Shown piece by piece: positions 16,694 through 63,114 of a DNA stretch of 64,000 nucleotides. A model generated the notes under the pieces. It saw nothing but the letters and a program-made list of their open reading frames with translations. It had not been told where the DNA came from and ran no database searches. Position numbers and translations under genes: made by a program. Numbering within the stretch: position 1 is the stretch's first letter; each line of letters opens with the position of its first letter. This DNA is from Escherichia coli (GTDB lineage: Bacteria > Pseudomonadota > Gammaproteobacteria > Enterobacterales > Enterobacteriaceae): the NCBI RefSeq assembly GCF_030384885.1, contig NZ_CP128614.1; one strand, 5' to 3'.

Positions 16694-16704
16694 AAAGTAA
16701 CTTT
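16694..16704. repeat. Palindrome AAAGTAACTTT, copy a (intergenic)
   Basis: Read directly; between the umuC stop and the DsbA-like gene stop. Confidence 0.6.
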
Positions 16705-17512
16705 AGGCCCCGCGAGCTTTTTCGATTGCGCCCTGCAAAGTTGCTGCGTCCATAGCCCCGGGGATAAATGTGGTAGTCGCCGCATTCGGCTTTTTCATAT
16801 TCATAATGATGAAGCCGGGTGTGCCGGTGATCCCAAGCGCTTCGCCCAGCTGCATGTTGCCGGAGATCACGTTTTCATATCGGTTTTTTTCCCTGTCAGA
16901 AAACGTGCTGTTAAACCCTGACTTATCCACCACAGTATTAAAGTCGCTGAGTTCGAATTTGCGTTGAGAGGTCATGAAGGTATGAGCCACAGCCATCAGG
17001 TTGTTGTGGTATTTACGATAGGCTTCAGCACCGAAATTCTGATAGACGTGCAGACCCGTAGCGGCCCCCATGGCAGATACAGGTTTTGAACCGGCAAAAA
17101 TCGGGAATTCTTTAAAGAAGAATTTTACATCTTTGCTCTGATTCATTACCGATTCAACAACAGGTGTAACCCGCATGCAGTAAATACACTGATAGTCGAA
17201 GAACTCGATTACCGCGACGTCGGCGTCATCCGGGCCGATGTTTGGCGTCTCCTTGGTATCCAGCAGAGCTGGCGCATATGGAATTATTCGTTCCACTGAG
17301 GCACTTACGTTCTGATTTTCCAGCGCCTTACCTGCTTCCACTAAATAATGGGGATTTTTTACCAGGTAAGTAGCGGCAATTTTGCCAATTTCTTCCTCAC
17401 TGAGCACCTTCGGTTTAAAATAAGTTGCCGCGATTAACGCCGAGGCAGCGGTAGCAATTACCGCAGAAATTAAAATCGTGGCCATCGGTTTTAAATAAAA
17501 TTCTTTAGACAT
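16703..17512 (-). CDS. DsbA-like periplasmic thioredoxin-fold oxidoreductase
   Basis: 269-aa ORF with an N-terminal anchor/signal and a CxxC motif (DYQCIYC). Confidence 0.55.
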   Translation of the reverse strand: MSKEFYLKPMATILISAVIATAASALIAATYFKPKVLSEEEIGKIAATYLVKNPHYLVEAGKALENQNVSASVERIIPYAPALLDTKETPNIGPDDADVAVIEFFDYQCIYCMRVTPVVESVMNQSKDVKFFFKEFPIFAGSKPVSAMGAATGLHVYQNFGAEAYRKYHNNLMAVAHTFMTSQRKFELSDFNTVVDKSGFNSTFSDREKNRYENVISGNMQLGEALGITGTPGFIIMNMKKPNAATTTFIPGAMDAATLQGAIEKARGA

Positions 17513-17618
17513 AGCTACCTTTATGCTTTTCAGCCTGTTAGTTATTAACCTGCGATGGATTATACTGGCCCGGTAAATCGGAATTATTCGTGAAACAATG
17601 CTTTTTGGAGATTAAAGG

Positions 17619-18230
17619 ATGATTAGGCAGGGCTTTATACTCACAACCGCAATGCTTTTGAGTGGTTGTGGATATCATTTCGCAAACCAGGTAGATGCGT
17701 ACGATCTAATGCCTCGTCCTGTTACAAATAAAAGGTTTCAGATAGTCCCTCCGGACGAAAGTATTCAGTCCAGAATGTTTTCAGGCCGTTTTGCTGATGG
17801 ATTAGCAAAAAAAGGAGTCATTATTTCCACTCACCAGCCAGATTATGTGCTCAGGTTCCGAATGAGCAGCTCACAGGAGAACATGCAGTATAGCGAGCAG
17901 CTTCTTACTGGGGTGACAGGCTACGTTGTAGATAAAAAGACAACGAGAACTGACAAGCATGGCGAATCGCATACTGACTATGACTACAGGCCGGTCGATG
18001 GGGTAATAGGCACTGAGACGATGTCGCAGATGCACTATATGCGACAGCTGGATGTCGAGGTATACCCGTCAGCGAAAGGAGCAAAGCAGGTTCTGAAAGT
18101 GAGTATGCAAAGCAATGCACCTGTGCCGTCAGACAGCATTGCTTATTCAGCAATGATCGACGCCTTTACTGATAAATTTGATGCGCCGCTGCGTTCCGGA
18201 AATTATGTTGCAGTGATCCCCTGGAACTGA
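17619..18230 (+). CDS. Putative lipoprotein
   Basis: 203-aa ORF with lipobox (LLSGC) after a short signal peptide. Confidence 0.5.
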   Translation: MIRQGFILTTAMLLSGCGYHFANQVDAYDLMPRPVTNKRFQIVPPDESIQSRMFSGRFADGLAKKGVIISTHQPDYVLRFRMSSSQENMQYSEQLLTGVTGYVVDKKTTRTDKHGESHTDYDYRPVDGVIGTETMSQMHYMRQLDVEVYPSAKGAKQVLKVSMQSNAPVPSDSIAYSAMIDAFTDKFDAPLRSGNYVAVIPWN

Positions 18231-18289
18231 AAGCAGACGGCGGGAAGAGAATGTTCAAAAGTGACTTTTGGACACGCACATAAACGTGG

Positions 18290-18712
18290 CTATCGCCCTC
18301 CCCCATTAAAATCATAAAGTCGGTAAAGATCGCCCATCGTGATGGAATTGGGCTTATTAATGATTAGATACTGTAACTGTTCTTTATGTTGAGTACTGGC
18401 GGCTGCATTCATAAGCACTTCCAGGTAGAACTTGTAGCCTATGCTTCGCTCTGAATACATATACTGGAACTGCATCAGTAAAATGCCTGACATAACATAC
18501 AACAGCAGCAGACTGAGTAACACAGTGCTATCAGGCTGTTCCAGTGCCATACTGACATACCCTGAACCCAGAATGCACAGAAGCCAACCCGTCATTAGAG
18601 CAGGCACCCTACGACTCAGACGTTCATAACAACGTTTTATTACGGGATCCCGGAGATACTTTTTGTCAGGTATCCCCGTTGCCCTGATGACGAAGTTACT
18701 GAGTATCGACAT
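18290..18712 (-). CDS. Hypothetical membrane protein
   Basis: 140-aa ORF with predicted transmembrane helices. Confidence 0.4.
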   Translation of the reverse strand: MSILSNFVIRATGIPDKKYLRDPVIKRCYERLSRRVPALMTGWLLCILGSGYVSMALEQPDSTVLLSLLLLYVMSGILLMQFQYMYSERSIGYKFYLEVLMNAAASTQHKEQLQYLIINKPNSITMGDLYRLYDFNGGGR

Positions 18713-18745
18713 CTTTTTTCCTTCTGGACGCTCTCAGTCAATAAA

Positions 18746-19144
18746 TCAGGCCAGGCGCTCATTGAAAGCTACCACGAGCTGCGAATCGGGATTTTTTACC
18801 AGTTCGGGCCGGATAACTTTTAGTTGCCTCGTTGGGGCGAGCTCATCTGTAGGCCTGATGGTGGTATTACCCGGCCCCTTGCGGGTACTGTCGGTGTTTA
18901 CCTTGAGCTTTTTATTTCCCAGGTAGCTTTCCATCTTTTTAGAGATGGTGTCACCTGTGGTCGCAACACCAGAGAGTTCCTTTAGTTGTTCACCTTGATC
19001 CATTTGTACCGATGACATCAGAAATACGATTCCTGGATCGTTTTCCGTTCCACAGGCTCCGTACTGACATTGTGCAGCGAAAACGGGCTGTACACCTACA
19101 GCAACCAGCATTAACGTACTCAGTAAAGTAGATTTCATACACAC
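18746..19144 (-). CDS. Hypothetical secreted protein
   Basis: 132-aa ORF with signal peptide (MCMKSTLLSTLMLVAVGVQPVFA). Confidence 0.45.
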   Translation of the reverse strand: MCMKSTLLSTLMLVAVGVQPVFAAQCQYGACGTENDPGIVFLMSSVQMDQGEQLKELSGVATTGDTISKKMESYLGNKKLKVNTDSTRKGPGNTTIRPTDELAPTRQLKVIRPELVKNPDSQLVVAFNERLA

Positions 19145-19158
19145 CTCTTACAGTCGGA

Positions 19159-19169
19159 AAAGTTACTTT
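19159..19169. repeat. Palindrome AAAGTTACTTT, copy b (overlaps the DsbC-like stop)
   Basis: Read directly (GGAAAAGTTACTTTTGCGC). Confidence 0.6.
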
Positions 19170-19912
19170 TGCGCAGCGCCCATTTGGGTCACCAGGTTTT
19201 CCGGGCTCAGCCACCCCGTAAATAACTGCGGTTTGCCGCTTAGTGTCACCATGGTAGGAGTACCTTGCAGCGGGATTGTTGAGGCCACCTGGAAATGCGA
19301 TTTGATAATGTTTAAGCAAGCCTCATCAGGACGTCCTTCCGGGATAGTTGAAACCGGATTCATCGCTGCATCCAGAGCTTCGTTTGGCTTTGCTGAACAC
19401 CAGATTTTGGCCATGTTCCCGGCTACTACCGAGTTCAGTCCTGCACGTGGGAATGCAAGAAACTTAATCGAAATACCGGCATCAAGATAAGACTTCAGAT
19501 CATGATGCAGTTTTTGGCAGTATCCACAGGTTATATCGGTAAAGATAGCAAGCCGGTATTTTTCGTTTGGTGATTTGTAGTCGATGGATTTTGTTTTGGA
19601 TGCGAATTCCCGGACGCCCATTAAAATGGCCTGCTCAGTGGTGTTTACCACATCTTTACCTTTCACGTGGAATAAGCTTCCGGTAAAAATGTAATCTCCG
19701 TCTTTGCTCACGTAACTTACCCCCTCCCTGGAAATCACCGTAAAAATATCTTTTACTGGCGAGGGTTCGACGTGCTCGATTGAAAGCCCAATGGCTTTGA
19801 GCTTATCCCGGGCTGCATCTGGCAGTACCATTGTATTAACCGGCTCGGCATTCATCGTGAAGGCGGTACTTAATGAAAGAAGTAATACCGATGCCTTAAT
19901 AATTTTTTTCAT
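19163..19912 (-). CDS. dsbC: DsbC-like thiol:disulfide interchange protein
   Basis: 249-aa ORF with signal peptide and the DsbC active site CGYC. Confidence 0.75.
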   Translation of the reverse strand: MKKIIKASVLLLSLSTAFTMNAEPVNTMVLPDAARDKLKAIGLSIEHVEPSPVKDIFTVISREGVSYVSKDGDYIFTGSLFHVKGKDVVNTTEQAILMGVREFASKTKSIDYKSPNEKYRLAIFTDITCGYCQKLHHDLKSYLDAGISIKFLAFPRAGLNSVVAGNMAKIWCSAKPNEALDAAMNPVSTIPEGRPDEACLNIIKSHFQVASTIPLQGTPTMVTLSGKPQLFTGWLSPENLVTQMGAAQK

Positions 19913-20059
19913 TTATGCTCCTTGAATCGAGCACTAATATTATCACGCCCAAAAATTCCAGAATTTTGCTTAAACGCTTAAATCAACGGGTAAAGCCGAA
20001 AGAAAGTCGATAGATATATGGGAGAATAGATAAAACGTAGATTCAGTGGAGAAATCGTT

Positions 20060-20599
20060 GTGTTTACACCACCAGCAGATGATGTGAAACCTATTCCCGT
20101 TCCTGATGAGATTTACACTCAGTGCATTACGGATGCCGCCCGCTTCTTCGGAATTGATGCCGAACTGGTTTTTACGTTGTTTGACAATGAAGGCGGTAAG
20201 GTTGGTACTTTCAGCAGGAATACTAACGGCACTTATGATATTGGCCCGATGCAGATCAACTCATCCAATCTGCCTGAAATAAAAAAGCATTTCCCGACTG
20301 TAACGTGGCGGGTTCTGGCTTACGATGCTTGCGCTAGTTTCTGGGTTGGAACATGGTGGCTCTACAGAAAAATTGTTGATCGCAAGGGCAATGTGTTTGA
20401 AGGGATTGCAGATTACAACAGCAAAACCCCAAAGGTACGTGCAAAGTACATATTTAACTTCATGGTAAAGTACAATCGCCGGATCCAGCAGCGTAACGGG
20501 ATGGGTGAGCTTTATCAATGGACCCAACAACCTCCTCGATACAATGGCCATATAGCTAAAAATGTCCCGGAGCAAAACCCGACTCCTGTTGTTAAATAA
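20060..20599 (+). CDS. Lytic transglycosylase (SLT domain), probably T4SS-associated
   Basis: 179-aa ORF with SLT-like motifs (GPMQIN, ADYNS). Confidence 0.6.
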   Translation: MFTPPADDVKPIPVPDEIYTQCITDAARFFGIDAELVFTLFDNEGGKVGTFSRNTNGTYDIGPMQINSSNLPEIKKHFPTVTWRVLAYDACASFWVGTWWLYRKIVDRKGNVFEGIADYNSKTPKVRAKYIFNFMVKYNRRIQQRNGMGELYQWTQQPPRYNGHIAKNVPEQNPTPVVK

Positions 20600-20681
20600 A
20601 TTCAACCTGATATTACAGAAGATCATCGAGTAGCTTGGGTACCCCCCCGCAAAAAATTCGCATAGACTCAGGGGTAATAAA

Positions 20682-21248
20682 TTGTCTTTTTCTGCAAGAA
20701 ATATATTTAAGATTCTCTCTTCTTTCTTGATGCAGAAAAGCCCTCTTCATGAAGAAGTATGTGTTCCTGAAGAAACAACAGCTGGTTTATGGGGCCCTCT
20801 CCCTGATTCGCATGTCGTGCTTTTCTTAGATTTCGATGGGGTTTGTCACAGGTGCAAAAATGAAACCTTTGAGCGAATGCCATTGGTGGAAAAATTACTG
20901 GATAAATGCCCTTCCATGGTGATTGTCATCTCCAGTTCGTGGCGTGAATGTGCCAGTATAACTTACCTGAAATCTCTTTTCCGGCTACCTTATAGAGACA
21001 AAGTCATAGGTGCTACCGATTCGGTATATTTAAAACCTAATCAGTCAGGTGTGCGGGCTGCTGAGTGTGAGGACTTTGTATTTTCACATCGAGTTAAAGC
21101 ATTTATCTGCCTTGATGACGACGAATCATTATTCCCGGTCGGTTATCCACATTTGCAAAAAACCAATTATTACACCGGCCTCACCGAATCTGATCTTGCA
21201 GCTCTTAACACCAGGTATCATCTGCTTATGAAACGTTGGGCTTCCTGA
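20682..21248 (+). CDS. HAD-like hydrolase (putative)
   Basis: 188-aa ORF with HAD motif I (VVLFLDFDGV) and a distal DDD motif (CLDDDESLF). Confidence 0.45.
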   Translation: MSFSARNIFKILSSFLMQKSPLHEEVCVPEETTAGLWGPLPDSHVVLFLDFDGVCHRCKNETFERMPLVEKLLDKCPSMVIVISSSWRECASITYLKSLFRLPYRDKVIGATDSVYLKPNQSGVRAAECEDFVFSHRVKAFICLDDDESLFPVGYPHLQKTNYYTGLTESDLAALNTRYHLLMKRWAS

Positions 21249-21251
21249 ATT

Positions 21252-21262
21252 AAAGTAACTTT
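21252..21262. repeat. Palindrome AAAGTAACTTT, copy c (intergenic)
   Basis: Read directly (TTAAAGTAACTTTTACGG). Confidence 0.6.
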
Positions 21263-21355
21263 TACGGAGAGCATGCCCGCATTATCAGTTCTATGCTTCT
21301 CCATTTCTGCCCCGGGTCAAAGCATTGCACAGTTGGAAGAAAACATGCCGGTCTC

Positions 21356-22645
21356 TTAAGCTTGCTGCTCAGTTTGGTTCCGGTGCTGAAAAACCTGCCA
21401 ACGGTGCTTTAGGAATTCAGTATTGATGGGTTTACGCAGCGGCTTAATAAACTCTCCTTGATATGCCGCTAAATCATGATCTACCGCCAAAGCTTCAGCG
21501 AGAATGTTAACCTCCAACGTCACCGGATGAATGGCAATCATGTTTGCGTCGAAAAGATCGTGTATATCATGGCGTAAGAGCAACCCATTTGTATAATGGT
21601 CTACTCCTCCGTTACGATGCTCCATCAGATGAGCAGCCTCAGTGCGCTGGCGCAGTCTAGAGCCTGTAATCACACATTGGTCATAACAGTTGTTGCGGAC
21701 GGCTTCTGCAAATGAGGCCTGATCTGGTCGTGTCTCGACAGTTGTCTTACTACCCTTACGCTTACCCGGTACAGTAGTTTCATCAGGAATATTCGGCTGA
21801 AGCTCCTTTTCTTCTATACCATCAGTCTTCATAGCGACCATAATCGCGGCCGGTGGAGATTTAGGCTGATCTTCCTGCGATCTTTCGCGGCCACCAACTG
21901 GATACCCTAGAAAACCCTCAATGATCTCTAGTGGAGGTAATGTAGCGTTTGAACGTGCATAAATAGCGAACTCTGCGGCACGTCCGCCGGGAATATATCT
22001 ACGTACCAGTATTGGAAGAGAGGCTTCTTCATCTGGTTCCTCTTTTTCCGACAGGATTATTCGTTCGGTGAGACGGGCTGAATTTTTTTTCATTTCACTC
22101 AACAGTCTATTGCGTTCTTTTACCTTTCGGTCATTATCCTCCAACATCTTACGATGACTAACCTTAGCCAGATGGTCTTCCAGTTCCTGTATATATTCGG
22201 GATCGATAGTGTCAATTAGACCGAACGCCATCAACCGCTCCCCCCTTGTTTTACAAGATTCTAGCCGAACGCGAATGTACTCCTTACGCTTGGCCATCAA
22301 ATGTTCTTTTTGTTTTTTTTCTCGAATTACACGGAGCTGAGTATTGTAATTAGAATAAACGGTTTCGCTATTCTGCTCTGTCTCTAGAGCAAATTTTTGT
22401 AGGTGTTCACGTAGTTTTTTACGGGTATTTTTGGGGGCATGCATTACGGTACGCTCAATGTATGAGCCTGTGCAGCGTAAAGAAAGTACAGTTTCAGCAT
22501 GGGAATAACCAGCATTGAGACGATAGCGGGCAATTTTAAGCAAATTATTAAAGTGTGCACCATTACATATACCTAGTTCTTCCAAGACACGACGTTCTCT
22601 ATCATTAATAGATGGATGGTTAATATCTTTTACTTTGTTTGCCAT
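21356..22645 (-). CDS. HNH endonuclease-domain protein with a large charged/coiled-coil N-terminal region
   Basis: 429-aa ORF; C-terminus has an HNH-like motif (…CVITGSRL…EAAHLMEHRNGGVDHYTNGLLLRHDIHDLFD…). Confidence 0.55.
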   Translation of the reverse strand: MANKVKDINHPSINDRERRVLEELGICNGAHFNNLLKIARYRLNAGYSHAETVLSLRCTGSYIERTVMHAPKNTRKKLREHLQKFALETEQNSETVYSNYNTQLRVIREKKQKEHLMAKRKEYIRVRLESCKTRGERLMAFGLIDTIDPEYIQELEDHLAKVSHRKMLEDNDRKVKERNRLLSEMKKNSARLTERIILSEKEEPDEEASLPILVRRYIPGGRAAEFAIYARSNATLPPLEIIEGFLGYPVGGRERSQEDQPKSPPAAIMVAMKTDGIEEKELQPNIPDETTVPGKRKGSKTTVETRPDQASFAEAVRNNCYDQCVITGSRLRQRTEAAHLMEHRNGGVDHYTNGLLLRHDIHDLFDANMIAIHPVTLEVNILAEALAVDHDLAAYQGEFIKPLRKPINTEFLKHRWQVFQHRNQTEQQA

Positions 22646-22730
22646 GTCCTGTGTCTCAGTGCCTATTCAGCCGGAACATCTACTACATAAAGAACGAGAT
22701 TGTACAGAAATCAGCTAAGTTTATGAATAA

Positions 22731-22765
22731 AAAAGGCCGCAAATTTATACTTTGCGGCCTTCACT
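22731..22765 (-). terminator. Rho-independent terminator after trhG
   Basis: GC hairpin (AAGGCCGCAAA…TTTGCGGCCTT) followed by a T-run on the minus strand, about 60 bp past the trhG stop. Confidence 0.6.
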
Positions 22766-26787: not shown

Positions 26788-28266
26788 TCAGTTACGTGTG
26801 CCACGAATACTTTCAGTGAAAGCCTTCCGTTGCAGGCGACGGTTATCCCAGGTTGAAATGACGTCCGAGCTGGTACCGACCTGGCTGTGCGATAGCTCAT
26901 AGGCGGCTTTAACCTGTTTTGAGAGATTGTCTGTTAATCGGTTGAGATCATCCCTTTTACCCGACAGCGACTCACTCGGTATGCTCATGGTTGAAATTTT
27001 GGCCTCAACCTGGCGCAACATGTTGATTACGAGGCTCGTCGCAGCAATAGTGCTTATGTCCTGAATGTATGCGTACCCTTCCGGTGCTTCGAATGTTTGC
27101 AAAGAGTCGATAATGGTCGGGATGCCGATATAGGAGATAATGCGTAATTCATCATCTGAAACACGAACGTCGTTGATGATTTTTTTCTGTACGTTTAAAA
27201 GAAGATCAGAAATGGTATCCTTCAATCCCTTAAAACCACCGTCATTAACTTCTGACATGACAAGGCACTGAGCCTTTCGTGGGGATGATGGATCTGGTGC
27301 CGGAGAACACTTGAGCATTTTAATTGATCCGCCAGCTGGTGGCCCCATGATGTAATCCGTGACAGTCATGGTAGACGGGCGGACTTCCATTCCCGCTTTT
27401 TCGCCTTTGCTATCCCAGTTGATAATGACAGTACCCACGAGAGACATAAGTTGTTCTGCCAATTTATAACCGGATAACTCCGTTACCCCTCCGATGTTCA
27501 TTGTTCCCTTATCAATATCCATGAACGACATATAGAAGAGGTTACCACTGAATTTTTCAGCGAACTCTTCGGGATCCTTTGCTTTAACCTGAGAAGTGAC
27601 AGCTTCAGGTGACTTTGTCATCGATGAGCCAAAATCAGGAATGAGACCATTAATCGATCCCAGAATTGAGGCTGGTCCAGAGCTAACTGAGTTAGCGAAC
27701 TGGCTTGGCGTACCCACGTTTTCAGAAAGGAAAGAGTAAGTTGCATTGCATGAATCTTTCGCAAATTTATTTAGCGCTTGCAGTTTGTTTTGGATGTCAT
27801 TAATCGTTGCAGCACAGTCAGCACAAATAGCTGAAACAGCAACGTTAAAAGCATAGATAGCCGCACCCTGGGCAATACCACGGGCCACCTGCACAAGCTG
27901 GTCCCCGTTGATCATGCTGAAGGACCCAAGAAAAACGTCAATACCATTACAACCGACAGAAGCTTTTGGAAACGACATGGAAACAAGGTTGGTATTAACG
28001 TTTGTTGTTCGGTAAGACATTGACCCGCCAACTATGCCTGTACGGGTTGCTGTGGAAAAGGTGGCCGGGCTGGTAGACGTCATCATGCCATTGAAAATGT
28101 TACGCATTGCGTTGTCTGCATTTGCAGTCGGGGCTAAAATTGCAGCACAAACAGAAAGAGACAAAAGTAACTTTTTGAAGTTGAAAACGGCATTACTGCG
28201 CATAAGTGCCTCCAAAACTGCCGCCAGCATTGAGATAATTGACCGGATCGGCCGTAGGCATGTCAT
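26788..28266 (-). CDS. trhH: F-type T4SS TraH/TrhH-like protein
   Basis: 492-aa ORF with a signal peptide; the true start is probably the internal Met near 28203. Confidence 0.75.
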   Translation of the reverse strand: MTCLRPIRSIISMLAAVLEALMRSNAVFNFKKLLLSLSVCAAILAPTANADNAMRNIFNGMMTSTSPATFSTATRTGIVGGSMSYRTTNVNTNLVSMSFPKASVGCNGIDVFLGSFSMINGDQLVQVARGIAQGAAIYAFNVAVSAICADCAATINDIQNKLQALNKFAKDSCNATYSFLSENVGTPSQFANSVSSGPASILGSINGLIPDFGSSMTKSPEAVTSQVKAKDPEEFAEKFSGNLFYMSFMDIDKGTMNIGGVTELSGYKLAEQLMSLVGTVIINWDSKGEKAGMEVRPSTMTVTDYIMGPPAGGSIKMLKCSPAPDPSSPRKAQCLVMSEVNDGGFKGLKDTISDLLLNVQKKIINDVRVSDDELRIISYIGIPTIIDSLQTFEAPEGYAYIQDISTIAATSLVINMLRQVEAKISTMSIPSESLSGKRDDLNRLTDNLSKQVKAAYELSHSQVGTSSDVISTWDNRRLQRKAFTESIRGTRN

Positions 28267-43201: not shown

Positions 43202-43212
43202 AAAGTTACTTT
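43202..43212. repeat. Palindrome AAAGTTACTTT, copy i (intergenic)
   Basis: Read directly (CAGAAAGTTACTTTTCCG). Confidence 0.6.
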
Positions 43213-46975: not shown

Positions 46976-48160
46976 TCATGACTGTCCCTTGTTCATCTTA
47001 TCAGCATGCTTACGCAGGTACTCTTTCAGGTCAGCATGAGCGTTGATGATATCGTTCATTTCATCATTGGTCAGAACAAGCGTGTAAGTATCAGTACTGA
47101 CAGATTCACCTTCTTTAAGCTTGGCTTCTTCAGCAATACGTTCAAAAATCGGGATCGCGGTGTCTGCAATGACGGTCACAGTCTTTTTGTTCAGAACGCT
47201 GGACATGGAAGGTGCTTTACCTGCCGGGTTCTGTTTAGGAGCGCTGTCCTTTGGAGCTGGAGCCGGTTCCTGTACCGGTGGCGTATCCAGCGTCTCCGTA
47301 TTGCTTTCATCGTTCAGTTGATCCGGTACCGGGGTGTTATCGGTAGTATCATCTGCCGGTTGCTCAGCACCGATGTTTTCCGGAGTCTGCGGATCTGCCA
47401 TGCGCTCTTCTACCTTGGCAGCTTTGACGAATTTCAGCGTGTTTTTCGTCGCCTTGCCATAGATGGAGATCGCTTTGTTGATGTTATCTACCGCATCCTC
47501 ACCGCTGTACATATACTCGTCCAGTGCAACGTACATGCTCACCTGATCGCTCACAAGCATGGTCTGTAGTTCAGAAGGCAGGTCCAGTACGCGAACCATC
47601 TGGCGAAGATGCTGCTCTGATTTACCACGTTTTTTTGCCAGTTCCGCAAAGGTCTTAGGCTCTTCTTTATCTTCAACCAGACGCTTAATTGAAAGCGCTT
47701 CAGCTACGACAGACAGCGCCAGGTTGGAGTTGCCGGTCAGGGTGAAGAGTTCTGCTTTTGAAGCGCTACCGCGAAACTCTTCGCAGCGAATACGAGTAAT
47801 GCGTTCACGCCCTTCTGCTTCCAGCTGGCGGTTTGCAATAGCGATGGAACGGATACGGCAAGCCCCCTGACGCAGTACAGGTACGCCATTAACCATCTGA
47901 ACAACGATAGGCGTCACGCTGAACGGGTCTTCCATGTAGGCATCGGCCAGGCTGTTCAGGTGTTCCACAACGTGAGGCATTGAATAGTAGAGCTCGCCCA
48001 TACCGGCCGTGCGGGTGTTAAAGCCTTCCTGCTCTACAACAACCGAAGGGTCAATGATAAGGCCGTTGCCTTTACGGGCACCGTTACCAGTGCGTTCCAG
48101 GTAACCACGAAGGCTGATTTCGTTGCTGTTGTTTTTTACTTCAGTTTCGATTGCGGACAT
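46976..48160 (-). CDS. ParB/KorB-like protein (ParB N-terminal nuclease-like domain, HTH, Pro/Glu-rich linker)
   Basis: 394-aa ORF; ParB-box-like stretch (…VPVLRQGACRIRSIAIANRQ…) and a low-complexity acidic/proline linker; one palindrome copy lies ~90 bp upstream of the start. Confidence 0.5.
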   Translation of the reverse strand: MSAIETEVKNNSNEISLRGYLERTGNGARKGNGLIIDPSVVVEQEGFNTRTAGMGELYYSMPHVVEHLNSLADAYMEDPFSVTPIVVQMVNGVPVLRQGACRIRSIAIANRQLEAEGRERITRIRCEEFRGSASKAELFTLTGNSNLALSVVAEALSIKRLVEDKEEPKTFAELAKKRGKSEQHLRQMVRVLDLPSELQTMLVSDQVSMYVALDEYMYSGEDAVDNINKAISIYGKATKNTLKFVKAAKVEERMADPQTPENIGAEQPADDTTDNTPVPDQLNDESNTETLDTPPVQEPAPAPKDSAPKQNPAGKAPSMSSVLNKKTVTVIADTAIPIFERIAEEAKLKEGESVSTDTYTLVLTNDEMNDIINAHADLKEYLRKHADKMNKGQS

Positions 48161-48250: not shown

Positions 48251-48261
48251 AAAGTAACTTT
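48251..48261. repeat. Palindrome AAAGTAACTTT, copy j (upstream of ParB-like gene)
   Basis: Read directly (GAAAAAGTAACTTTTTTT). Confidence 0.6.
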
Positions 48262-48376: not shown

Positions 48377-48387
48377 AAAGTTACTTT
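48377..48387. repeat. Palindrome AAAGTTACTTT, copy k (intergenic)
   Basis: Read directly (GAAAAGTTACTTTTCCGG). Confidence 0.6.
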
Positions 48388-51970: not shown

Positions 51971-53309
51971 CATAAGCGCTAACTTAAGGGTTGAACCATC
52001 TGAAGAATGCGACGCCTCGGTGCCTCGTTAAGACGATGCCTCGCGTTCTTCAATTGCGTTTTGTAGGCTGTCAGGGATACTGTCCCACGAATGGCCACCT
52101 GTAAGCTCCAGATGACCATTTTTGTTATTCTCCACAACGAGTTAGTTCTTCTTTTCGGATCCGGCACTTCTGGGGGGGAAATCCAGCGATGGCTGGATTA
52201 TGTCGTCAATTAAAAATGCGGCGAGTAGATTAGCAAATATCCACGCTTTCGCGAGTTCAGGTTCCTTTGCACGCAAAGCATCCAGGTGCAGCAAACTTTT
52301 GAGCCGCTTAAAAGCCAGTTCAATTTGCCATCGCAGACGGTAACAATCAGCCACTTGCTCTGCTGAATATTCATCTTCCGGTAATGATGTTAGCAATAGC
52401 ACATGGCCCGCTGCTTCCAGCGTTTCCGCCTGAACTACTCGTCCTTTTCGACGATTCTCGCTGAGCAGTCGGGTTTTACTGATTAATGCTTTTTCGGGAG
52501 GAAGTGATACGGCAATGAGACGTGCCGGAAAGGGAGCTCCGGCTTTTTTATTACCTGAATTGCCTATCATTACAGTGGTTTCACCGTTCTTACCGCAATC
52601 CAGCCCGCGCAGAAAACCCATCATGTCAAAGCGCATTCCTTCTGCAGTTAACCAGCGCAATCCTCGCCAGTGAACCCGGACGATATAATCAGCTTCTCCA
52701 AAAGCAAGTGAGCGGATACATTCGGGACGCGAACCGAATCCCCGGTCAGCAATGCGTATCTCGTCTGCCGTTTGCGCAAATCGGTCCAGCCGTTCAGCGT
52801 CTCTGCTGTCGGTTAGCTCAAAATCAGTGAACTGACAGGTATGAGGATCATATCCCATATGTAGTCGCCATTCAGCGCTGCCGCCCCCGGGCGCACTGAT
52901 TGCTGTTCCATCGACAAGACGCAATCTCTTTCCGCTTGTACAACCCGTAACTGCGGCGCGTACAGCAAGTGTTTGTGCGGCAAGTATGCCAAACCAGTCG
53001 GCGGCATTCCGCAGCCGCTTCAGGAGAGCCACGTCAGATAATGTTGCAACGTCATGGAGCTGAGCCCATGCAGTGACTTCACGTAATGACATCCCCCCGG
53101 GGCCGTAAGCCAGCCCCAGACGTAGCAGAGTTGCAGCATCACGAATTTCGCGGCGGCGGGTTAGAGCCCCGGCATTACGTGCCGAAGTATCCAGTTCTTC
53201 GGGCTTACCAATATGGGCCAGAATTGCTGACCAGTTATCGTGAGAGTAATTCATCGGCACGTTAAATCATATCAGGCGTAATACCACAACCCTTAAGTTA
53301 GCGCTTATG
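51971..53309 (-). mobile_element. IS186: IS186 (IS4 family) with 11-bp target-site duplication GGGGTTGCCCC
   Basis: 23-bp terminal inverted repeats CATAAGCGCTAACTTAAGGGTTG at both ends; direct repeats GGGGTTGCCCC at 51960-51970 and 53310-53320. Confidence 0.9.
52142..53254 (-). CDS. IS186 transposase
   Basis: Translation MNYSHDNWSAILAHIGKPEELDTSARNAGALTRRREIRD… matching IS186 transposase as recalled. Confidence 0.9.
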   Translation of the reverse strand: MNYSHDNWSAILAHIGKPEELDTSARNAGALTRRREIRDAATLLRLGLAYGPGGMSLREVTAWAQLHDVATLSDVALLKRLRNAADWFGILAAQTLAVRAAVTGCTSGKRLRLVDGTAISAPGGGSAEWRLHMGYDPHTCQFTDFELTDSRDAERLDRFAQTADEIRIADRGFGSRPECIRSLAFGEADYIVRVHWRGLRWLTAEGMRFDMMGFLRGLDCGKNGETTVMIGNSGNKKAGAPFPARLIAVSLPPEKALISKTRLLSENRRKGRVVQAETLEAAGHVLLLTSLPEDEYSAEQVADCYRLRWQIELAFKRLKSLLHLDALRAKEPELAKAWIFANLLAAFLIDDIIQPSLDFPPRSAGSEKKN

Positions 53310-57080: not shown

Positions 57081-57302
57081 GATTAACTCTCCAGATTATG
57101 TGGAATCATTATAACAACTGGCATCCCGCCACAAATAACCTGAGAAAAATTCTTTGAAATATTCCTATATATAAGGAATTACAGTCGGAAAAGAAACGAT
57201 GAAATAGCGCCGACCGCTTAAAATCGATAAATTAAAATGGACGGCACTGGAATGAAAAACTGAAAGTAGTAAGACCGTAATTATCCTTCACGGATGTAAG
57301 CT

Positions 57303-57503
57303 TTATAAGAGGAGTACTGGCAAAGCTTTGCCAAGTACTTCGGCGGTTGTGTCTACGATTTTACGGATGTCATCGATCTGCGAAGGCTTATTCAACACCA
57401 CCGTAAAAAGCTCTCCTTCGTTATCAGCCTGCTCGCAGTTTCCGTATCGGCTCCCGTCGTACAGCTGCACAATACGTGACATAGAAGACTTTGTTTGTTT
57501 CAT
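57303..57503 (-). CDS. Hypothetical small protein
   Basis: 66-aa ORF just downstream of paralog 1. Confidence 0.3.
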   Translation of the reverse strand: MKQTKSSMSRIVQLYDGSRYGNCEQADNEGELFTVVLNKPSQIDDIRKIVDTTAEVLGKALPVLLL

Positions 57504-57542
57504 GGCTTTGCACCTGCTTTTAGGCAGTTTGGTTACTGGTTA

Positions 57543-57767
57543 TCAGAAGCTGGTTTCATGCGCTTCCGGCTGGGACACGAACTGGTATTTGACGCCGCCA
57601 GGCACACCTACTGCTTCGGCAATAGAGTCGCAAAGCCGCGATAAATCATTTAGTGTCATCGGATATTCAATATCTACAGAATATAAAGCACCTGCATTTT
57701 CAGCATCTTCGATGTTTTTATACTGGGCACTAAATATAGCAATGGTCTGAATTTCGTGGTTATGCAT
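57543..57767 (-). CDS. Small conserved protein, paralog 1 (shares …YPMTLNDLSRLCDSIAEAVGVPGG… with 62732..62971)
   Basis: 74-aa ORF clearly homologous to the 79-aa ORF at 62732..62971. Confidence 0.5.
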   Translation of the reverse strand: MHNHEIQTIAIFSAQYKNIEDAENAGALYSVDIEYPMTLNDLSRLCDSIAEAVGVPGGVKYQFVSQPEAHETSF

Positions 57768-58165
57768 GAACCGGTCCTTATTAAATTATAAAAGCCACCC
57801 GAGAGTGGCCTGAGTTGAAACTTAAATCTGTGAAGTATTTTTGAGAGATTTTTTGCGATCCAGATGCCGGGCAACAATGGTTCCGATAACAAGTAGCATG
57901 ATGACCGCACTGAAGAAGGTGCTGTCAGGGACGCCCTGGAAAAAATCACTGAAACTGTAAACAATAAAAATCAATGCGCAAAAATAGAAAACGATACGAA
58001 CATAAGGGGTAAAAAACATTTTCATCGGTTGCCTTCCATTCAGGGAGAATTCTCAGTAATTACATCACACCTGAAGAGAAACTATTTTCGTATAAATGAG
58101 CATTTTCGACATATCAGAGGGGGGGTTTACTCATAAATGAGGTAGTAAGGGTCACACTTGAGGTG

Positions 58166-58176
58166 AAAGTTACTTT
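58166..58176. repeat. Palindrome AAAGTTACTTT, copy l (intergenic)
   Basis: Read directly (GTGAAAGTTACTTTCCTGG). Confidence 0.6.
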
Positions 58177-58204
58177 CCTGGCTGCGAACGAACTATCTCA
58201 AATG

Positions 58205-58498
58205 TTAGAGGTGTGCGTTCGCCTTGAGAGCCTCATGCCCTGAGGAGCTCAACTTGAGCCGATAGTATAAACCTGGCTCCAGATGGCTTGCTGGCTGGCA
58301 TAACTCCACGAGGCCGAGCCGGAACAGGACCGGAGAGCTCCTGCACGTCACATCATCAGGATTCCCCATAAACGTACGCCGTTCTCTGGCCCGTCTGAAA
58401 TTGCCAGAGATATCATAGACCGTGCCGGATGCCATCCGTCGTAACACGTAAATCTGTGCCATTGTAAGCTTCTGGGCGGAACTGCTTAAACCTGACAT
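58205..58498 (-). CDS. Hypothetical protein
   Basis: 97-aa ORF. Confidence 0.3.
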   Translation of the reverse strand: MSGLSSSAQKLTMAQIYVLRRMASGTVYDISGNFRRARERRTFMGNPDDVTCRSSPVLFRLGLVELCQPASHLEPGLYYRLKLSSSGHEALKANAHL

Positions 58499-58577
58499 AC
58501 CTTCCCCTCCTTATATAAAACAATCCGCCAGCAGCTCGACTGGCGGACAATGTTTGACTGGCAACAGCAAGGACATA

Positions 58578-59069
58578 CTATTTAGTGACAAGTTTGATCT
58601 TGGTTTCACTCATTCGAAGTCGAAACTCCTGAAAACCCTGCTCTACCGCTAACTCCAGCCACTCAACGGGAATGGTATAGCTACAATCAGACCCACCCAA
58701 AGCGGCATCACAAGCGTAATCCCAGTCCTCATCCAGTTTTGGATTCATCCCCTGGGCGTAAGCCACAGTATCGCGGGATGCGGGAGAGCCCTCAAGCTCA
58801 GCATTAGTGATCAGGTATACACCATGACTGTGCGCGAGAAGCACTTTTGGCACCAGATGTGTGCTGGCAATTTTTGAGGATGAGGGAAAGAAAACCCTAC
58901 CAGCTTTACGCGCCTCTTCTTCAGTCTGTCCCTCAGCGTTAAGGAGGGCTCCCCCCGGATAGCATGCCGGGTCATAGATCTGATCTGCGGTGACCGAAAA
59001 CGTTTTTGCGGTGCGAATTTCTTCGATCAGTTTATTAATATCCGCCATTTCAAATACGAGAGTGGTCAC
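58578..59069 (-). CDS. Hypothetical protein
   Basis: 163-aa ORF. Confidence 0.45.
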   Translation of the reverse strand: MTTLVFEMADINKLIEEIRTAKTFSVTADQIYDPACYPGGALLNAEGQTEEEARKAGRVFFPSSSKIASTHLVPKVLLAHSHGVYLITNAELEGSPASRDTVAYAQGMNPKLDEDWDYACDAALGGSDCSYTIPVEWLELAVEQGFQEFRLRMSETKIKLVTK

Positions 59070-59073
59070 AGGC

Positions 59074-59421
59074 TTACTCTCCCTCTTCAGTGGACAACAT
59101 CAGATACTTTGTTGCCAGCAGAAGCTCTCCCACATCCTTGAGGGACAATTCAGCTTTGCCTTCTACGGCAAGCTGCAAGCGCTGTCGAATTGCATGAACA
59201 GAATCTGAAGATAAAGATGCCATTTTGCGCAAAACGGCATTAGCCTTTTCTACAGCAGGATACAGAATTTCTGAGTTGGTATTATCTTCGTCATTATCAA
59301 AGATAATTTCAGAATCCATATTGATGTTATCTTCAAGCCAGCTTGAAAGCACTTCAAGTAATGACATCACCTTTTCAATTTGCATATCGCCTCCTCTGTT
59401 AATGTGAAACAAATATAACAA
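59074..59421 (-). CDS. Hypothetical acidic protein
   Basis: 115-aa ORF 4 bp downstream of the previous gene's start. Confidence 0.4.
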   Translation of the reverse strand: MLYLFHINRGGDMQIEKVMSLLEVLSSWLEDNINMDSEIIFDNDEDNTNSEILYPAVEKANAVLRKMASLSSDSVHAIRQRLQLAVEGKAELSLKDVGELLLATKYLMLSTEEGE

Positions 59422-59900
59422 AGTGGCTTACCCGGCTAATAACCTGAGCAGAAAGTTTTCGCACTTTGTTTGAAAACAACTTTTCTGCTCAGGTTAATGT
59501 TAAAGTCGCTGTGTAAAAGATAAAGGGCACTAAAGATGATTTAAGCATCAAACAGACTAAATCGGATTCCGTCTTTTATATCGCTTTTAAAATAGAATGA
59601 ATGAAATATAAATTTAGCGTTTATGATTGAACGCTGTAGAGGTTGATTTATCCAGTGATATTCAGTTTGGGGCCTTAAAAAGGTTTTATTTTGGATTCGA
59701 ATTACAAAGGGAGCACCGACATTTTTCTGGGGGCTCCCGCAGAGAAAAAGCGGTGAGGCTATGAAGACGAAGAGGAGGTATTCGACGAAATACTGTATGG
59801 CCACAGGAGAGCTTCAGCACCCATATCCTGCCGTCTCGCTCGCCTGTAATGATTTCAACATGTACAACGTCATACCACGTAGTTGTATTTCTCACTTTGT

Positions 59901-60221
59901 TTATGCTTCCTGACACCGTGTGAACGCAATCTTCGTCTGGATGCGTTCATAGATGGAAAACTGCCTTTCAATGGAACCGGCATTAGACAGTAATTCATGA
60001 AGCTCAGCAGAGTCTGTATCGGGAACGATAGCTACAGAAACTCCATATCTCCGTCCAATTTTGATTAGGTGCGCAAGCTGTTCTTTTTCGGATTCTGTGA
60101 GCATTGCCAGATCTCTTCCGGACACCTGCTCTATAAACGAACCAAGGTTTTTGGGAAAAAAGGGTTCGGCATCAGAGTTATGTGCTGGGCGCGTCTGCGG
60201 CTTATCGAAGCTATTGGGCAT
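59901..60221 (-). CDS. Hypothetical protein
   Basis: 106-aa ORF. Confidence 0.4.
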   Translation of the reverse strand: MPNSFDKPQTRPAHNSDAEPFFPKNLGSFIEQVSGRDLAMLTESEKEQLAHLIKIGRRYGVSVAIVPDTDSAELHELLSNAGSIERQFSIYERIQTKIAFTRCQEA

Positions 60222-60372
60222 GAATAGAACCTATACAGTTAGAGAACTGGAGAATGGATAAAGACTCTATGAAAATCAGTTGTGCTACACTCGAATGCTA
60301 ATCAAGCTTTATGATGGCTTTAGTAGGGATGGCCGTCAACTTAAACCGATAAGAAGGGAGCCATTTATCGTT

Positions 60373-60383
60373 AAAGTAACTTT
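60373..60383. repeat. Palindrome AAAGTAACTTT, copy m (intergenic)
   Basis: Read directly (TTAAAGTAACTTTCCCGG). Confidence 0.6.
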
Positions 60384-60400
60384 CCCGGATGATGCTCTTT

Positions 60401-60628
60401 TTACGAAATAAGTTTCTCACACTCCTGTATAAGAGTCGCCCTGGAACGAGATCGACTGGCTTTGCTTAATGAAGAGCGTAGTTGATGTTCATCAACCCCA
60501 TCAGCGATAAACTGACCGATTTTTGTTTCAAGCCGCTGCATTGCCTCGTAAAGCTTGGCATCCGCATTATTTTTAAGAAACCTCAGTATATAATCAGCAA
60601 TAATTTGGACGGGAGTGAACTTATACAT
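60401..60628 (-). CDS. Hypothetical small protein
   Basis: 75-aa ORF; a palindrome copy lies just past its stop. Confidence 0.35.
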   Translation of the reverse strand: MYKFTPVQIIADYILRFLKNNADAKLYEAMQRLETKIGQFIADGVDEHQLRSSLSKASRSRSRATLIQECEKLIS

Positions 60629-60855
60629 TATGTATCCTTAAGACGTTGTGTTAAATGATTCAAAAAAATTTATAACCAGACGTAAATTATTATACATAAG
60701 TAAGCACTTTAGCTAACAAGCTGGAGGAGTGAATTTCGGTTAGCAACTATATTTTAGAAGCTGATTGCTGAATAGACAAAGCCCGGCTTACCGGGCATTC
60801 ATTTAATTAGATGCTAGAAATCTGACCCGTCGTCTGACTTTTATTCCAGGCAGAG

Positions 60856-61467
60856 TTAGGAACTAATAATGATGGCCTGGTCAGTTTGAGGAAGCCGGTT
60901 TCCTCTGATAAATGCAGGGTGGTTTAAACGAGAAGAAGAAATGGTCATCGCCAGAAATGTCTCTTCACGCGAACGCAGAAATTCCCCCCATGAATAGGTT
61001 TCCCATACGTCGTGAGAAAGGTCGGATTCCTTTATGTACCGGGATTGCATTGTTGGCTCAAAATCGACAGGGGCTAAACTGTCATAGGATGGATGAACAC
61101 GGTACCCCAATCCCTCCTCCGTCTGATGGTATGCATGTGCCAAAAGGACATCGTGGGAGACCAGGTCATAGTCGTTGTCCTGAACGAGCGTTTTTACGGT
61201 ATGACTAATTTCCCCAAAGCCGTCTATTTCCCAGAGCGTTATCATTGTGAACTCAGCTAAAGTTCGTGGGCTCTTTACCAGAAAGCCATTTAATGCTCGT
61301 CGCCCCTTCAGCATGCCAACGTGGTAGGTCTTGTTGGGATAGGGTTTCATTGCCACCAGCGAATCAGCTTTAAGCTCAAGTGACAATTCAGGGACAGACA
61401 CGGACATGAGAGTACACTTGTTTTTCATATGGTGAAGAATACGTGGCACAAGATGCAGATACATCAT
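60856..61467 (-). CDS. Hypothetical protein
   Basis: 203-aa ORF. Confidence 0.45.
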   Translation of the reverse strand: MMYLHLVPRILHHMKNKCTLMSVSVPELSLELKADSLVAMKPYPNKTYHVGMLKGRRALNGFLVKSPRTLAEFTMITLWEIDGFGEISHTVKTLVQDNDYDLVSHDVLLAHAYHQTEEGLGYRVHPSYDSLAPVDFEPTMQSRYIKESDLSHDVWETYSWGEFLRSREETFLAMTISSSRLNHPAFIRGNRLPQTDQAIIISS

Positions 61468-61578
61468 TTTCTCCTTTTATGGATATAACTGGCAGATCCT
61501 CAGCAGCATCAAAATAGTTAATAGACTTTTTTAATTGGTTAACCACTGTTGATTGACTTGTTTTATGTCTCTGAGAAA

Positions 61579-62145
61579 TTATTCGTTTTGTTTCTGTTCG
61601 TTATACTGCTCAAACCAGAAGACGACCGGTTTTACTACAATATGAAGCAAACCAAAACGTTCTGCGGTACGGAAATTCACGCTATATGCGCGAGCCCGTT
61701 CAACCTGTTTGGTAATTTCATTTCTCATTCCTTCAACACTAAAAGCTCCTTTAAAAAGGTTGCAGGGAGCGCATGATGGAAATAAGTTTTCTATTGCATG
61801 CAGTTCAGGGTGCATAACCTTACCCGTACTTCGGGCAACATGAGTTACGCCGCTGCCGACCGGGGCTCTCACCAGTTCAAAGTCGCGTCGAACAGGCTCA
61901 ACATGATCGGCATGCCACCCTTTTTCAGGAAGCTTGCAACCACAATAGGCACAACGCCCCCCAAATTTCATTCGCAGCTCAGCTCGCTGTATTTTAGAGA
62001 TCTTATTTTTAGGTTTTGAGAACCTACCATCAGGTGATTCCGCTTTGGATAACTTTGCTGAGGGCTCAGGTAACTCAACTAAATTCCCGTTGATATTTAT
62101 CACCTTGACCATATCATTTTCCGCCTTTACTAATCTCACGGGCAC
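61579..62145 (-). CDS. HNH endonuclease
   Basis: 188-aa ORF with Cys pairs and HNH core (CAYCGCKL…HADHVEP…ENLFPSCAPCN). Confidence 0.6.
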   Translation of the reverse strand: MPVRLVKAENDMVKVININGNLVELPEPSAKLSKAESPDGRFSKPKNKISKIQRAELRMKFGGRCAYCGCKLPEKGWHADHVEPVRRDFELVRAPVGSGVTHVARSTGKVMHPELHAIENLFPSCAPCNLFKGAFSVEGMRNEITKQVERARAYSVNFRTAERFGLLHIVVKPVVFWFEQYNEQKQNE

Positions 62146-62172
62146 AGGAGCTGGCTTAAGTAACCGCTGAAG

Positions 62173-62361
62173 TTAACAGCCACTGACTGCCTCTACCCAG
62201 ACCTTCTGTTTATACTCAATAGGCCACCCCTCTTTATCTGCCCGGATGACGCAATCATTTACCGTGGTGCGTGACCGGATACGAACATCAAGCGGAAGCG
62301 AATCGTTATCCACACGAGCCTGTGCCTCATTTAAAATGCGTAAAAACATCTCTTTGGTCAT
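62173..62361 (-). CDS. Hypothetical small protein
   Basis: 62-aa ORF translationally coupled to the upstream ORF. Confidence 0.3.
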   Translation of the reverse strand: MTKEMFLRILNEAQARVDNDSLPLDVRIRSRTTVNDCVIRADKEGWPIEYKQKVWVEAVSGC

Positions 62362-62669
62362 TCAGATACCCCCTCAACTTTGCGAATTTTGATCAGATGA
62401 GGGCGATTCAGTTTACAAAGTTGTTCTGTCGCTTCATCAATCGAATTGAACCGATGAGCCTCTTCGATATTTAAAGTCCAGTATTTCGCTTTCCCTTCTC
62501 CCAGATCGGACTCAAAATAATTTCGCTTTACATCCATTTTTTTAGGCCTGCCATTTATCTTGACGACATTATGTCTGTCATCAAAAAGAAATTCGTCCCC
62601 CTCAAAAGTGATTAATACAAATGGCCCCTCAGGCTTGGAAGTCCGGGGACTTCCCATTTTCAAAGTCAT
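62358..62669 (-). CDS. Hypothetical protein
   Basis: 103-aa ORF; overlaps the next small ORF (62173..62361) by 4 bp. Confidence 0.4.
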   Translation of the reverse strand: MTLKMGSPRTSKPEGPFVLITFEGDEFLFDDRHNVVKINGRPKKMDVKRNYFESDLGEGKAKYWTLNIEEAHRFNSIDEATEQLCKLNRPHLIKIRKVEGVSE

Positions 62670-62731
62670 ACTTCAGCCTCTCGATAGAACTCATGAAACC
62701 TCAAATTAAAATGGACTCACACCACACTGAT

Positions 62732-62971
62732 TCAGTATTCCTCCTGAACCCCATTAGGCTCTGTTGTGATTTCATATTTAATACCGCCAGGTGCTCCCAC
62801 AGCGTCCGCGACCGACTCACACAGCAGCGAGAGATCGTTGAGGGTCATTGGGTGTTCAATGTCCAGCGTGAAGAGTTTCCCGGCTTGCTTGGCGGCTGTC
62901 TTGTCAGCATGTTCAGCATTAAAAAGGTATACGGTGTGTTTTTCCTGAGCGGGGGTATTTTGATTTTGCAT
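62732..62971 (-). CDS. Small conserved protein, paralog 2
   Basis: 79-aa ORF homologous to 57543..57767 (…HPMTLNDLSLLCESVADAVGAPGG…). Confidence 0.5.
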   Translation of the reverse strand: MQNQNTPAQEKHTVYLFNAEHADKTAAKQAGKLFTLDIEHPMTLNDLSLLCESVADAVGAPGGIKYEITTEPNGVQEEY

Positions 62972-63103
62972 TGATGATCCTTTTGTTTAGTTCCCCGATT
63001 CCGGGGGTGAGTGAATTAATTTAAATTTATATTTGTCTGGTTTAATTAGAACGTTTCCAGGCTATGCGTAAACAGGTAATGCAAAGGCTGTATCAACAGG
63101 ATT

Positions 63104-63114
63104 AAAGTTACTTT
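63104..63114. repeat. Palindrome AAAGTTACTTT, copy n (upstream of paralog 2)
   Basis: Read directly (TTAAAGTTACTTTTCTGG). Confidence 0.6.

Follow-up and report, generated by a model that had tools for sequence, protein, structure and literature searches.

The 64,000-nucleotide stretch of Escherichia coli DNA analysed here (the window; contig NZ_CP128614.1 of assembly GCF_030384885.1) contains a short palindrome, AAAGTWACTTT, in many scattered copies. This raises two questions: whether the copies have a function, and which protein recognises them. A preliminary description of the window had likened them to a plasmid-wide operator network such as that of the IncP protein KorB. Judged by sequence comparison, the palindrome, whose pattern we define as AAAGTNACTTT, is functional in evolutionary terms, and it is specific to the IncHI plasmid superfamily. 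We consider it about an even bet (a probability near 0.5) that it forms a KorB-like network of some 50 sites, bound or loaded by one or both of two orphan ParB-family proteins of these plasmids, PL1 and PL2; this reading is drawn by analogy.

The window belongs to an IncHI2 (R478-like) plasmid. A megablast search with positions 28000-50000 returned more than 900 near-full-length matches to IncHI2 plasmids, and pHS13-1-IncHI2 was 99.997% identical to window 14100-51971. The annotation of the sites was transferred from this near-identical plasmid. GC-rich accessory (resistance) DNA occupies the first 14-16 kb of the window, and the AT-rich backbone that follows is the Tra1/oriT part: trhG, trhH, trhY, trhR, oriT, mobI, the MobH relaxase gene, and the coupling-protein gene, followed by many small genes. 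In typhoid Salmonella, IncHI plasmids are vehicles of multidrug resistance; in Enterobacterales, they harbour mcr-1, mcr-9, and carbapenemase genes. For whole-plasmid counts, we assembled R478 (274,762 bp), the IncHI2 type, and R27 (180,461 bp), an IncHI1 plasmid.

AAAGTWACTTT occurs exactly 14 times in the window, against a mean of 0.03 (maximum 1) in dinucleotide-preserving shuffles. The preliminary description had placed all these copies at the correct coordinates, and its view that they lie far above chance held in this over-representation test. Its figure of at least 14 copies was, however, an undercount, and the spread across the plasmid family was not visible to it. When one mismatch was allowed, three more sites appeared (18258, 30783, and 35132), for a total of 17 copies spanning 16694-63114. 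Each of the three differs solely at the centre base (G or C), and the same scan found no variant with a mismatch elsewhere in the core. Since the extra sites vary at the centre alone, the true pattern is AAAGTNACTTT, with W preferred at the centre. Six of the 14 exact sites show the full 13-bp palindrome AAAAGTNACTTTT and five more are extended on one side, which agrees with the earlier remark that many copies reach 13 bp. The frequent extended form reads AAAAGTWACTTTT, and the site in oligonucleotide or duplex form is AAAAGTAACTTTT. The resistance region was correctly described as free of copies: there are none in window 1-16693.

At the whole-plasmid level, R478 has 54 copies (about one expected) and R27 has 46. 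AAAGTNACTTT is by far the commonest palindrome of the 5-N-5 type, the runner-up reaching eight copies in R478 and four in R27. Order-3 Markov simulations of R478 gave 0-3 exact copies. In that comparison the exact core was enriched 50-fold, one-mismatch variants about 2-fold (32 vs. ~17 expected), and two-mismatch variants not at all (203 vs. ~183 expected). Enrichment of the exact core thus far exceeds that of mismatch variants, and the site is sharply defined. The twofold excess of one-mismatch variants suggests a minority of decayed or weak sites. Density on the IncHI backbone is about one site per 4-5 kb, and the accessory block of R478 (~80-150 kb) is nearly without sites, with three in ~70 kb. 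A full-text search of the literature for the motif strings, together with the IncHI, R27, and R478 literature, gave no description of the motif, although an early mention in the original R27 and R478 genome papers cannot be excluded.

The oriT region between trhR and mobI (31490-31640) contains three tandem inverted repeats with arms of 13-15 nt, AAAAGTGACCCTATG-N9-CATAGGGTCACTTTT, the third one degenerate. In each arm, the outer 9 nt are identical to the first 9 nt of the dispersed palindrome. Both R27 and R478 keep these repeats, which have one exact dispersed site on either side and are probably a relaxosome or oriT structure. They prompted us to count half sites, and isolated AAAGTNAC half sites were not enriched. 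Thus, the unit is the whole palindrome, as one would expect of a dimer.

The comparison of R478 and R27 shows that the sites are kept by selection. Twenty-six R478 sites could be aligned to R27 across the motif; 23 were scored as conserved, and a 24th (187421) had been misaligned, since R27 has a site there. Flanks of these orthologous sites are 64-84% identical, though 24 of the 26 cores are exact. At the 19 sites within open reading frames (ORFs), 52 of 54 third-codon positions in the core are identical between the two plasmids, compared with 777 of 1573 (49%) in the flanks (Fisher p = 1e-13). Such conservation indicates that the DNA itself is under purifying selection, independent of the encoded protein. 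Nor do the copies belong to a mobile repeat, an alternative named in the preliminary description; their flanks are unrelated, and they are restricted to the backbone. A flank of the T(T)CC/CTGG type, which it took to be shared, is indeed seen at 48377, 58166, 60373, and 63104, but across all sites the information content is zero beyond the flanking A/T at +/-6, which argues against a mobile repeat. When mobile or structured repeats were considered (repetitive extragenic palindromes, miniature inverted-repeat transposable elements, insertion sequence ends), the orthologous flanks diverged normally and no element-like similarity was found beyond the core.

Regarding their location, 28 of the 54 R478 sites (p = 2e-9) and 20 of the 46 R27 sites (p = 2.5e-5) are in non-coding DNA, which makes up 16-17% of the sequence under the crude ORF model used for this split. 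About half of the R478 sites are therefore intergenic, a threefold enrichment, and the remaining half are intragenic. For the exact sites of the window, the reported division into 11 at intergenic positions or gene ends and three in coding sequence (28164 in trhH; 36570 and 38300 in the coupling-protein gene) agrees with the pHS13-1-IncHI2 annotation. Sites occur in all reading frames, several are found between convergent genes, others adjoin repB, and others lie upstream of trhA, trhR, mobI, parM, htdT, and, in R478, trhF. The 53 intergenic sites with a single downstream gene, taken from six replicons, are mostly 80-300 bp before the start codon, with a median of ~140 bp.

The motif extends beyond IncHI1 and IncHI2. 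In Klebsiella plasmids of the IncHI1B/pNDM-MAR type, two regions of 38.8 and 40.6 kb contain 20 and 19 sites, respectively. In the first region, the PL1 orthologue (35% identity) is immediately preceded by six sites within 750 bp, and RepB has five beside it; in the second, two of the 19 are upstream of PL2. The clusters of the first (NZ_CP034040.1; region coordinates) are at 1084-2341, with five sites just downstream of repB, and at 17922-18671, with the six upstream of the PL1 orthologue; their spacings go down to 36 and 54 bp, and such clusters are not present in IncHI1 or IncHI2. Relatives in Yersinia intermedia and Leclercia have seven and five sites, respectively, each in 21 kb, and three metagenomic contigs encoding distant ParB-like homologues have 2-3 copies each. 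The motif is dense in the Klebsiella, Yersinia, and Leclercia relatives as well as in R478 and R27. An 8.6-kb stretch of an IncC plasmid contained no copy. A scan of 100,044 species genomes for paired sites gave, among the matches listed, mostly chance matches and tandem coding repeats, and one enterobacterial IncHI-like contig. A Tolypothrix campylonemoides contig (JXCB02000056.1), unrelated to IncHI plasmids, has eight dispersed copies of the same 11-mer in 14 kb; they could represent a separate repeat family that happens to contain this word.

Which protein could read these sites? Pfam and NCBIfam searches identified three ParB-family proteins in R478: the ParB of the Par1 partition module and the orphan paralogues PL1 and PL2. 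PL2 is the homologue of R27 R0042, is encoded outside the window, and is 32% identical to PL1. PL1 matches Pfam HTH_ParB, while its NCBIfam ParB and Noc matches are both below the cut-off. Its helix-turn-helix, GKSEQHLRQMVRVLDLP, is of the canonical ParB type and aligns to the DNA-binding domain of Caulobacter ParB. In the AlphaFold model, the predicted local distance difference test (pLDDT) is >90 at residues 20-250; next come a disordered linker, acidic and proline-rich, and a C-terminal domain made of helices. The top Foldseek matches are ParB bound to cytidine triphosphate (CTP), KorB-KorA, Noc, and Spo0J, with the best superposition on KorB-KorA (8qa9; TM 0.64-0.66). PL1 is thus, as modelled, a genuine ParB/KorB/Noc-fold protein. 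Orthologues of 34-66% identity all share the N-domain motifs FNTR and RQGxCRxR without change. When the CTP motifs were compared across the PL family, FNTR, RQG(A/H)CRxR(A), and GN were invariant or nearly so, with Cys in place of the first Arg of GERR.

These ParB-fold proteins have sites in their own promoters. The PL1 gene has upstream sites in five lineages: the two in the window, 96 and 222 bp before the start codon, have the same layout in R27; those of the Yersinia relative are at 104 and 205 bp; and that of Leclercia has one exact site and one with a single mismatch. Sites also precede genes of the PL2 type, by 43-130 bp in the Klebsiella type and two metagenomic contigs (43 or 130 bp in the latter). 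In R478 (270102) and R27 (45096), a one-mismatch variant, AAAGGTACTTT, is conserved ~80-95 bp upstream of PL2 and may be a deliberately weaker operator. As a candidate binder, PL2 is placed equally well as PL1. On R27 microarrays (PMC7366339, supplement), R0042 and R0104 belong to the genes with the strongest expression; gene order led us to equate R0104 with PL1.

As for their neighbours, PL-family genes repeatedly adjoin DNA methyltransferase genes: a Dam gene lies upstream of PL2-type genes at three loci, an N6_N4 methylase gene upstream of the family member P0037, and a methyltransferase gene ~1 kb downstream of the IncC orphan ParB-like gene. A DUF4942 gene follows PL2-type genes.

Of the known systems, KorB of RK2 offers the closest parallels. 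KorB recognises 13-bp OB palindromes, works as a CTP-dependent sliding clamp, and acts up to 1.5 kb away (PMC11790492). Both OB (TTTAGCSGCTAAA) and the IncHI site (AAAAGTWACTTTT) are 13-bp perfect 6-1-6 palindromes repeated about once per 5 kb of backbone, and both sets are promoter-proximal, distal, and intragenic, a mix in IncHI that resembles the three classes of KorB operator on RK2. PL1 shares with KorB the domain order (ParB N-domain, helix-turn-helix, long acidic linker, and C-terminal domain) besides the superposition on KorB-KorA, and sites precede the regulator's own gene, which for PL1 and PL2 is positional evidence. However, the IncHI sequence is unrelated to OB, the sites number ~50 instead of 12, and there are two orphan paralogues, with no adjoining ParA gene (IncC) and no KorA- or TrbA-like partner identified beside the gene; box II of PL1 reads GxCRxR instead of GERRxR. 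With a different site sequence and no neighbouring ParA, the IncHI system would be an analogue of the IncP KorB regulon and not a member of it. The proposal of a KorB-like, plasmid-wide operator network is thus supported by backbone restriction, promoter enrichment, and purifying selection across IncHI1, IncHI2, IncHI1B-type, and farther relatives, but does not extend to the OB sequence itself.

The IncA and IncC plasmids provide a second parallel. They have 12-14 dispersed palindromic parS sites, mostly intergenic and four in ORFs, which a ParB with a KorB domain (parAB053) binds in electrophoretic mobility shift assays (Kiss et al. 2024, PMC10954446). IncC and IncHI are of the same broad lineage (MOBH relaxase, MPF-F), and both have a conserved palindrome scattered on the backbone: most copies are intergenic, some lie in ORFs, and some adjoin activator-dependent promoters. 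The IncC core is instead TTTCACATGTGAAA with required AAAC/GTTT flanks; one IncC site overlaps the parA promoter and the binder comes from the ParAB operon, whereas the IncHI parA promoter is site-free. The IncC protein closest to PL1 is a different, orphan ParB-like protein. Noc, another ParB-family protein, has tens of dispersed palindromes on the Bacillus subtilis chromosome, both intergenic and intragenic, and PL1 resembles it weakly in profile and fold searches. As a chromosomal protein, Noc serves nucleoid occlusion by means of an N-terminal helix that targets the membrane, and nothing here suggests membrane binding by PL1. VirB of the Shigella virulence plasmid and BisD of ICEclc are orphan ParB-like proteins of mobile elements that load at specific inverted repeats and alter transcription at a distance. 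VirB counteracts H-NS, and IncHI transfer is H-NS-silenced and temperature-dependent. Both are activators with few loading sites each, compared with ~50 in IncHI.

By analogy with KorB on RK2, we propose that a dimeric plasmid-encoded DNA-binding protein, likeliest PL1 and possibly together with or replaced by PL2, would dock specifically on AAAGTNACTTT/AAAAGTWACTTTT. Nucleotide-dependent closure of the clamp could then be followed by spreading or sliding from the palindromes. In this way the binder would govern the expression of genes for replication, transfer, and maintenance and of many small backbone genes, its own included, with either silencing (as for KorB) or relief of H-NS silencing (as for VirB) as the outcome. 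The identity of the binder, the clamp mechanism, and the regulatory outcome are thus argued from analogy. A bolder version strikes us as doubtful: PL1 and PL2 might load together at the ~50 palindromes and coat the IncHI backbone, making a plasmid-wide chromatin switch (silencing or relief from H-NS) behind the HtdA/TrhRY- and temperature-dependent global control of most IncHI genes. The oriT repeats, whose arms start with the AAAAGTGAC half site, would link this switch to the start of transfer.

Several observations weigh against PL1 and PL2 as the readers of a regulatory network. The alignment of the 53 gene-oriented intergenic sites revealed no partner element at a fixed distance, and also no bias of the centre base with gene direction. 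A scan for sigma-70 promoters and terminators found none upstream of PL1. In PL1 orthologues the CTP-binding motif GERRxR of ParB is replaced by GxCRxR, which makes clamp behaviour and nucleotide binding uncertain, and the annotated neighbourhoods of PL1 and PL2 contain no ParA gene. Many other genes also have upstream sites, so those at the PL1 and PL2 promoters are no specific proof. Besides, two distant members of the PL family have no dispersed palindrome in 21 kb, and thus the link between protein family and dispersed palindromes is not general. Conservation of the recognition helix did not serve to choose between the paralogues: SEQH[LIV]R[QK] of PL1 is better kept across lineages, but H-x-R is found family-wide, including in members from motif-free elements.

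The partition proteins of the plasmid were also considered. Par1 ParB adjoins ParA and lies near two arrays of 249-bp tandem repeats. In R478 (12516-15095), these arrays, of about four copies each, fill the gene-free region upstream of parA, are free of the palindrome, and are probably the centromere of the Par1 module. There is no site at the parA promoter of R478 or R27. With its own repeat arrays and no site at this promoter, Par1 ParB is an unlikely binder. The ParR of Par2 was set aside as well: R478 has one site upstream of parM and R27 has none there.

Another plasmid regulator (TrhR/TrhY, HtdA, or an uncharacterised small backbone protein) could have the palindrome as its operator, an explanation that we hold to be unlikely. 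Both trhR and the mobI/relaxase operon have a site upstream, dozens of hypothetical proteins are encoded on the backbone, and the mutation of htdA in R27 derepresses 139 of 181 expressed genes (PMC7366339), which implies a plasmid-wide cis element or a cascade. TrhR and TrhY, put forward in the preliminary description as a FlhC-like pair that could bind the sites, activate the F, Z, AC, and H operons, and the F-operon promoter is the standard reporter of this activation (PMC7366339). However, this promoter, which HtdA represses, has no site in R478 even at two mismatches and one poor two-mismatch match in R27, and the htdA promoter has no site. TrhR, TrhY, and HtdA matched no Pfam or NCBIfam family, FlhC and FlhD included, and no known DNA-binding family among them. 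We therefore rejected TrhR/TrhY as FlhC/FlhD-like binders. The trhR operon has a site and yet is the sole tra operon outside HtdA control, and the reported action of HtdA on TrhR/TrhY takes place at the protein level (PMC7366339). It is quite improbable, too, that a ParB-family protein binds the sites as dispersed centromeres (parS) for partition or positioning and not as transcriptional operators. The use of parS in IncC partition (PMC10954446) would be a precedent from the same MOBH/MPF-F lineage, about half of the IncHI sites lie within genes or between convergent ones, places with no obvious promoter role, and the six-site cluster of the Klebsiella type is centromere-like. Against this, no ParA adjoins PL1 or PL2, Par1 has its own ParB and arrays with a site-free parA promoter, and both the threefold intergenic enrichment and the distance of 80-300 bp to start codons fit regulation better.

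A host protein conserved in Enterobacterales and exploited by IncHI plasmids would explain why the motif is unchanged in plasmids of Serratia, Salmonella, Escherichia, Klebsiella, Yersinia, and Leclercia, while the candidate plasmid proteins are only 35-45% identical. We judge this very unlikely: accessory DNA, much of it of enterobacterial origin, is nearly site-free (the R478 block and the first 16.7 kb of the window), and so is the IncC stretch, which comes from the same hosts. To our knowledge, no enterobacterial regulator has this consensus. Finally, some copies are in coding sequence and could encode K-V-T-F-like peptides, and the backbone is AT-rich, so the motif, instead of binding a protein, might reflect a mobile repeat, a bias in codons or peptides, or the base composition. 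This has next to no chance of being correct. It is refuted by the unrelated flanks, by the ~0-1 copies expected from shuffles and order-3 Markov models, by the R27 alignment, and by synonymous core positions kept far above the flanks at sites located in all frames and in non-coding DNA.

The sites of the window and the PL1 gene are listed below. The 1.3-kb insertion at 51972-53308, which is not in pHS13-1-IncHI2, has inverted ends ATAAGCGCTAACTTAAGGGTTG and the target GGGGGTTGCCCCC, and we take it to resemble IS186.

Copies of the dispersed palindrome in the window and the candidate binder gene. Distances are to start codons unless stated; R27 and R478 positions are in the coordinates of those plasmids.
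Feature	Position	Strand	Context
Exact site AAAGTAACTTT	16694..16704		Between the convergent ends of umuC and a DsbA-family gene; R27 orthologue conserved (R478 175717)
G-centre site AAAGTGACTTT	18258..18268		Between two convergent small genes
Exact site	19159..19169		Between two minus-strand genes, ~21 bp upstream of the start of the downstream gene; kept in R27 with the centre base changed
Exact site	21252..21262		3 bp past the stop of a HAD-domain gene, facing a convergent HNH gene
Exact site	28164..28174		Within the first trhH codons, where this gene meets the thioredoxin-family gene upstream of it; R27 counterpart 111899
C-centre site AAAGTCACTTT	30783..30793		Inside trhR; R27 orthologue conserved, with T centre
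Exact site	31224..31234		77-87 bp upstream of trhR, on one side of the oriT repeats; conserved in R27 (108821)
Exact site	31709..31719		Across the oriT repeats from the 31224 site, ~190 bp upstream of mobI (relaxase operon); R27 counterpart 108336
C-centre site	35132..35142		Inside the MobH relaxase gene
Exact site	36570..36580		Inside the coupling-protein gene (annotated traD; TraG in IncHI naming); conserved in R27, flanks 71% identical, synonymous positions kept
Exact site	38300..38310		Close to the 3' end of the coupling-protein gene; 1730 bp separate it from the 36570 site, as in R27; synonymous positions kept
Exact site	43202..43212		~164 bp upstream of a small minus-strand gene
PL1, 394-aa orphan ParB-family protein, candidate binder	46976..48160	-	ParB/Srx-like N-domain, helix-turn-helix, acidic/proline-rich linker, C-terminal helical domain
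Exact site	48251..48261		Centred 96 bp upstream of PL1
Exact site	48377..48387		Centred 222 bp upstream of PL1
Exact site	58166..58176		~141 bp upstream of a small minus-strand gene
Exact site	60373..60383		18 bp past the preceding gene's stop and ~152 bp upstream of a small minus-strand gene
Exact site	63104..63114		~133 bp upstream of a small minus-strand gene, downstream of a PAPS-reductase-family gene

Most R27 genes respond to the HtdA-TrhR/TrhY circuit, temperature, and H-NS, and no cis element common to them is known from the literature; the palindrome gives a point of entry to this network that is open to mutation. It indicates the ParB-like pair PL1 and PL2, highly expressed and uncharacterised, as candidate global regulators. 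If the proposed reading is true, this would be the largest known plasmid network of operators or loading sites of a ParB-family protein. At the practical level, the motif can be used as a sequence signature of IncHI-type backbone DNA. Moreover, supplying additional sites might titrate away the binder and so interfere with IncHI plasmids, as SGI1 does with IncC plasmids through its parS mimics.

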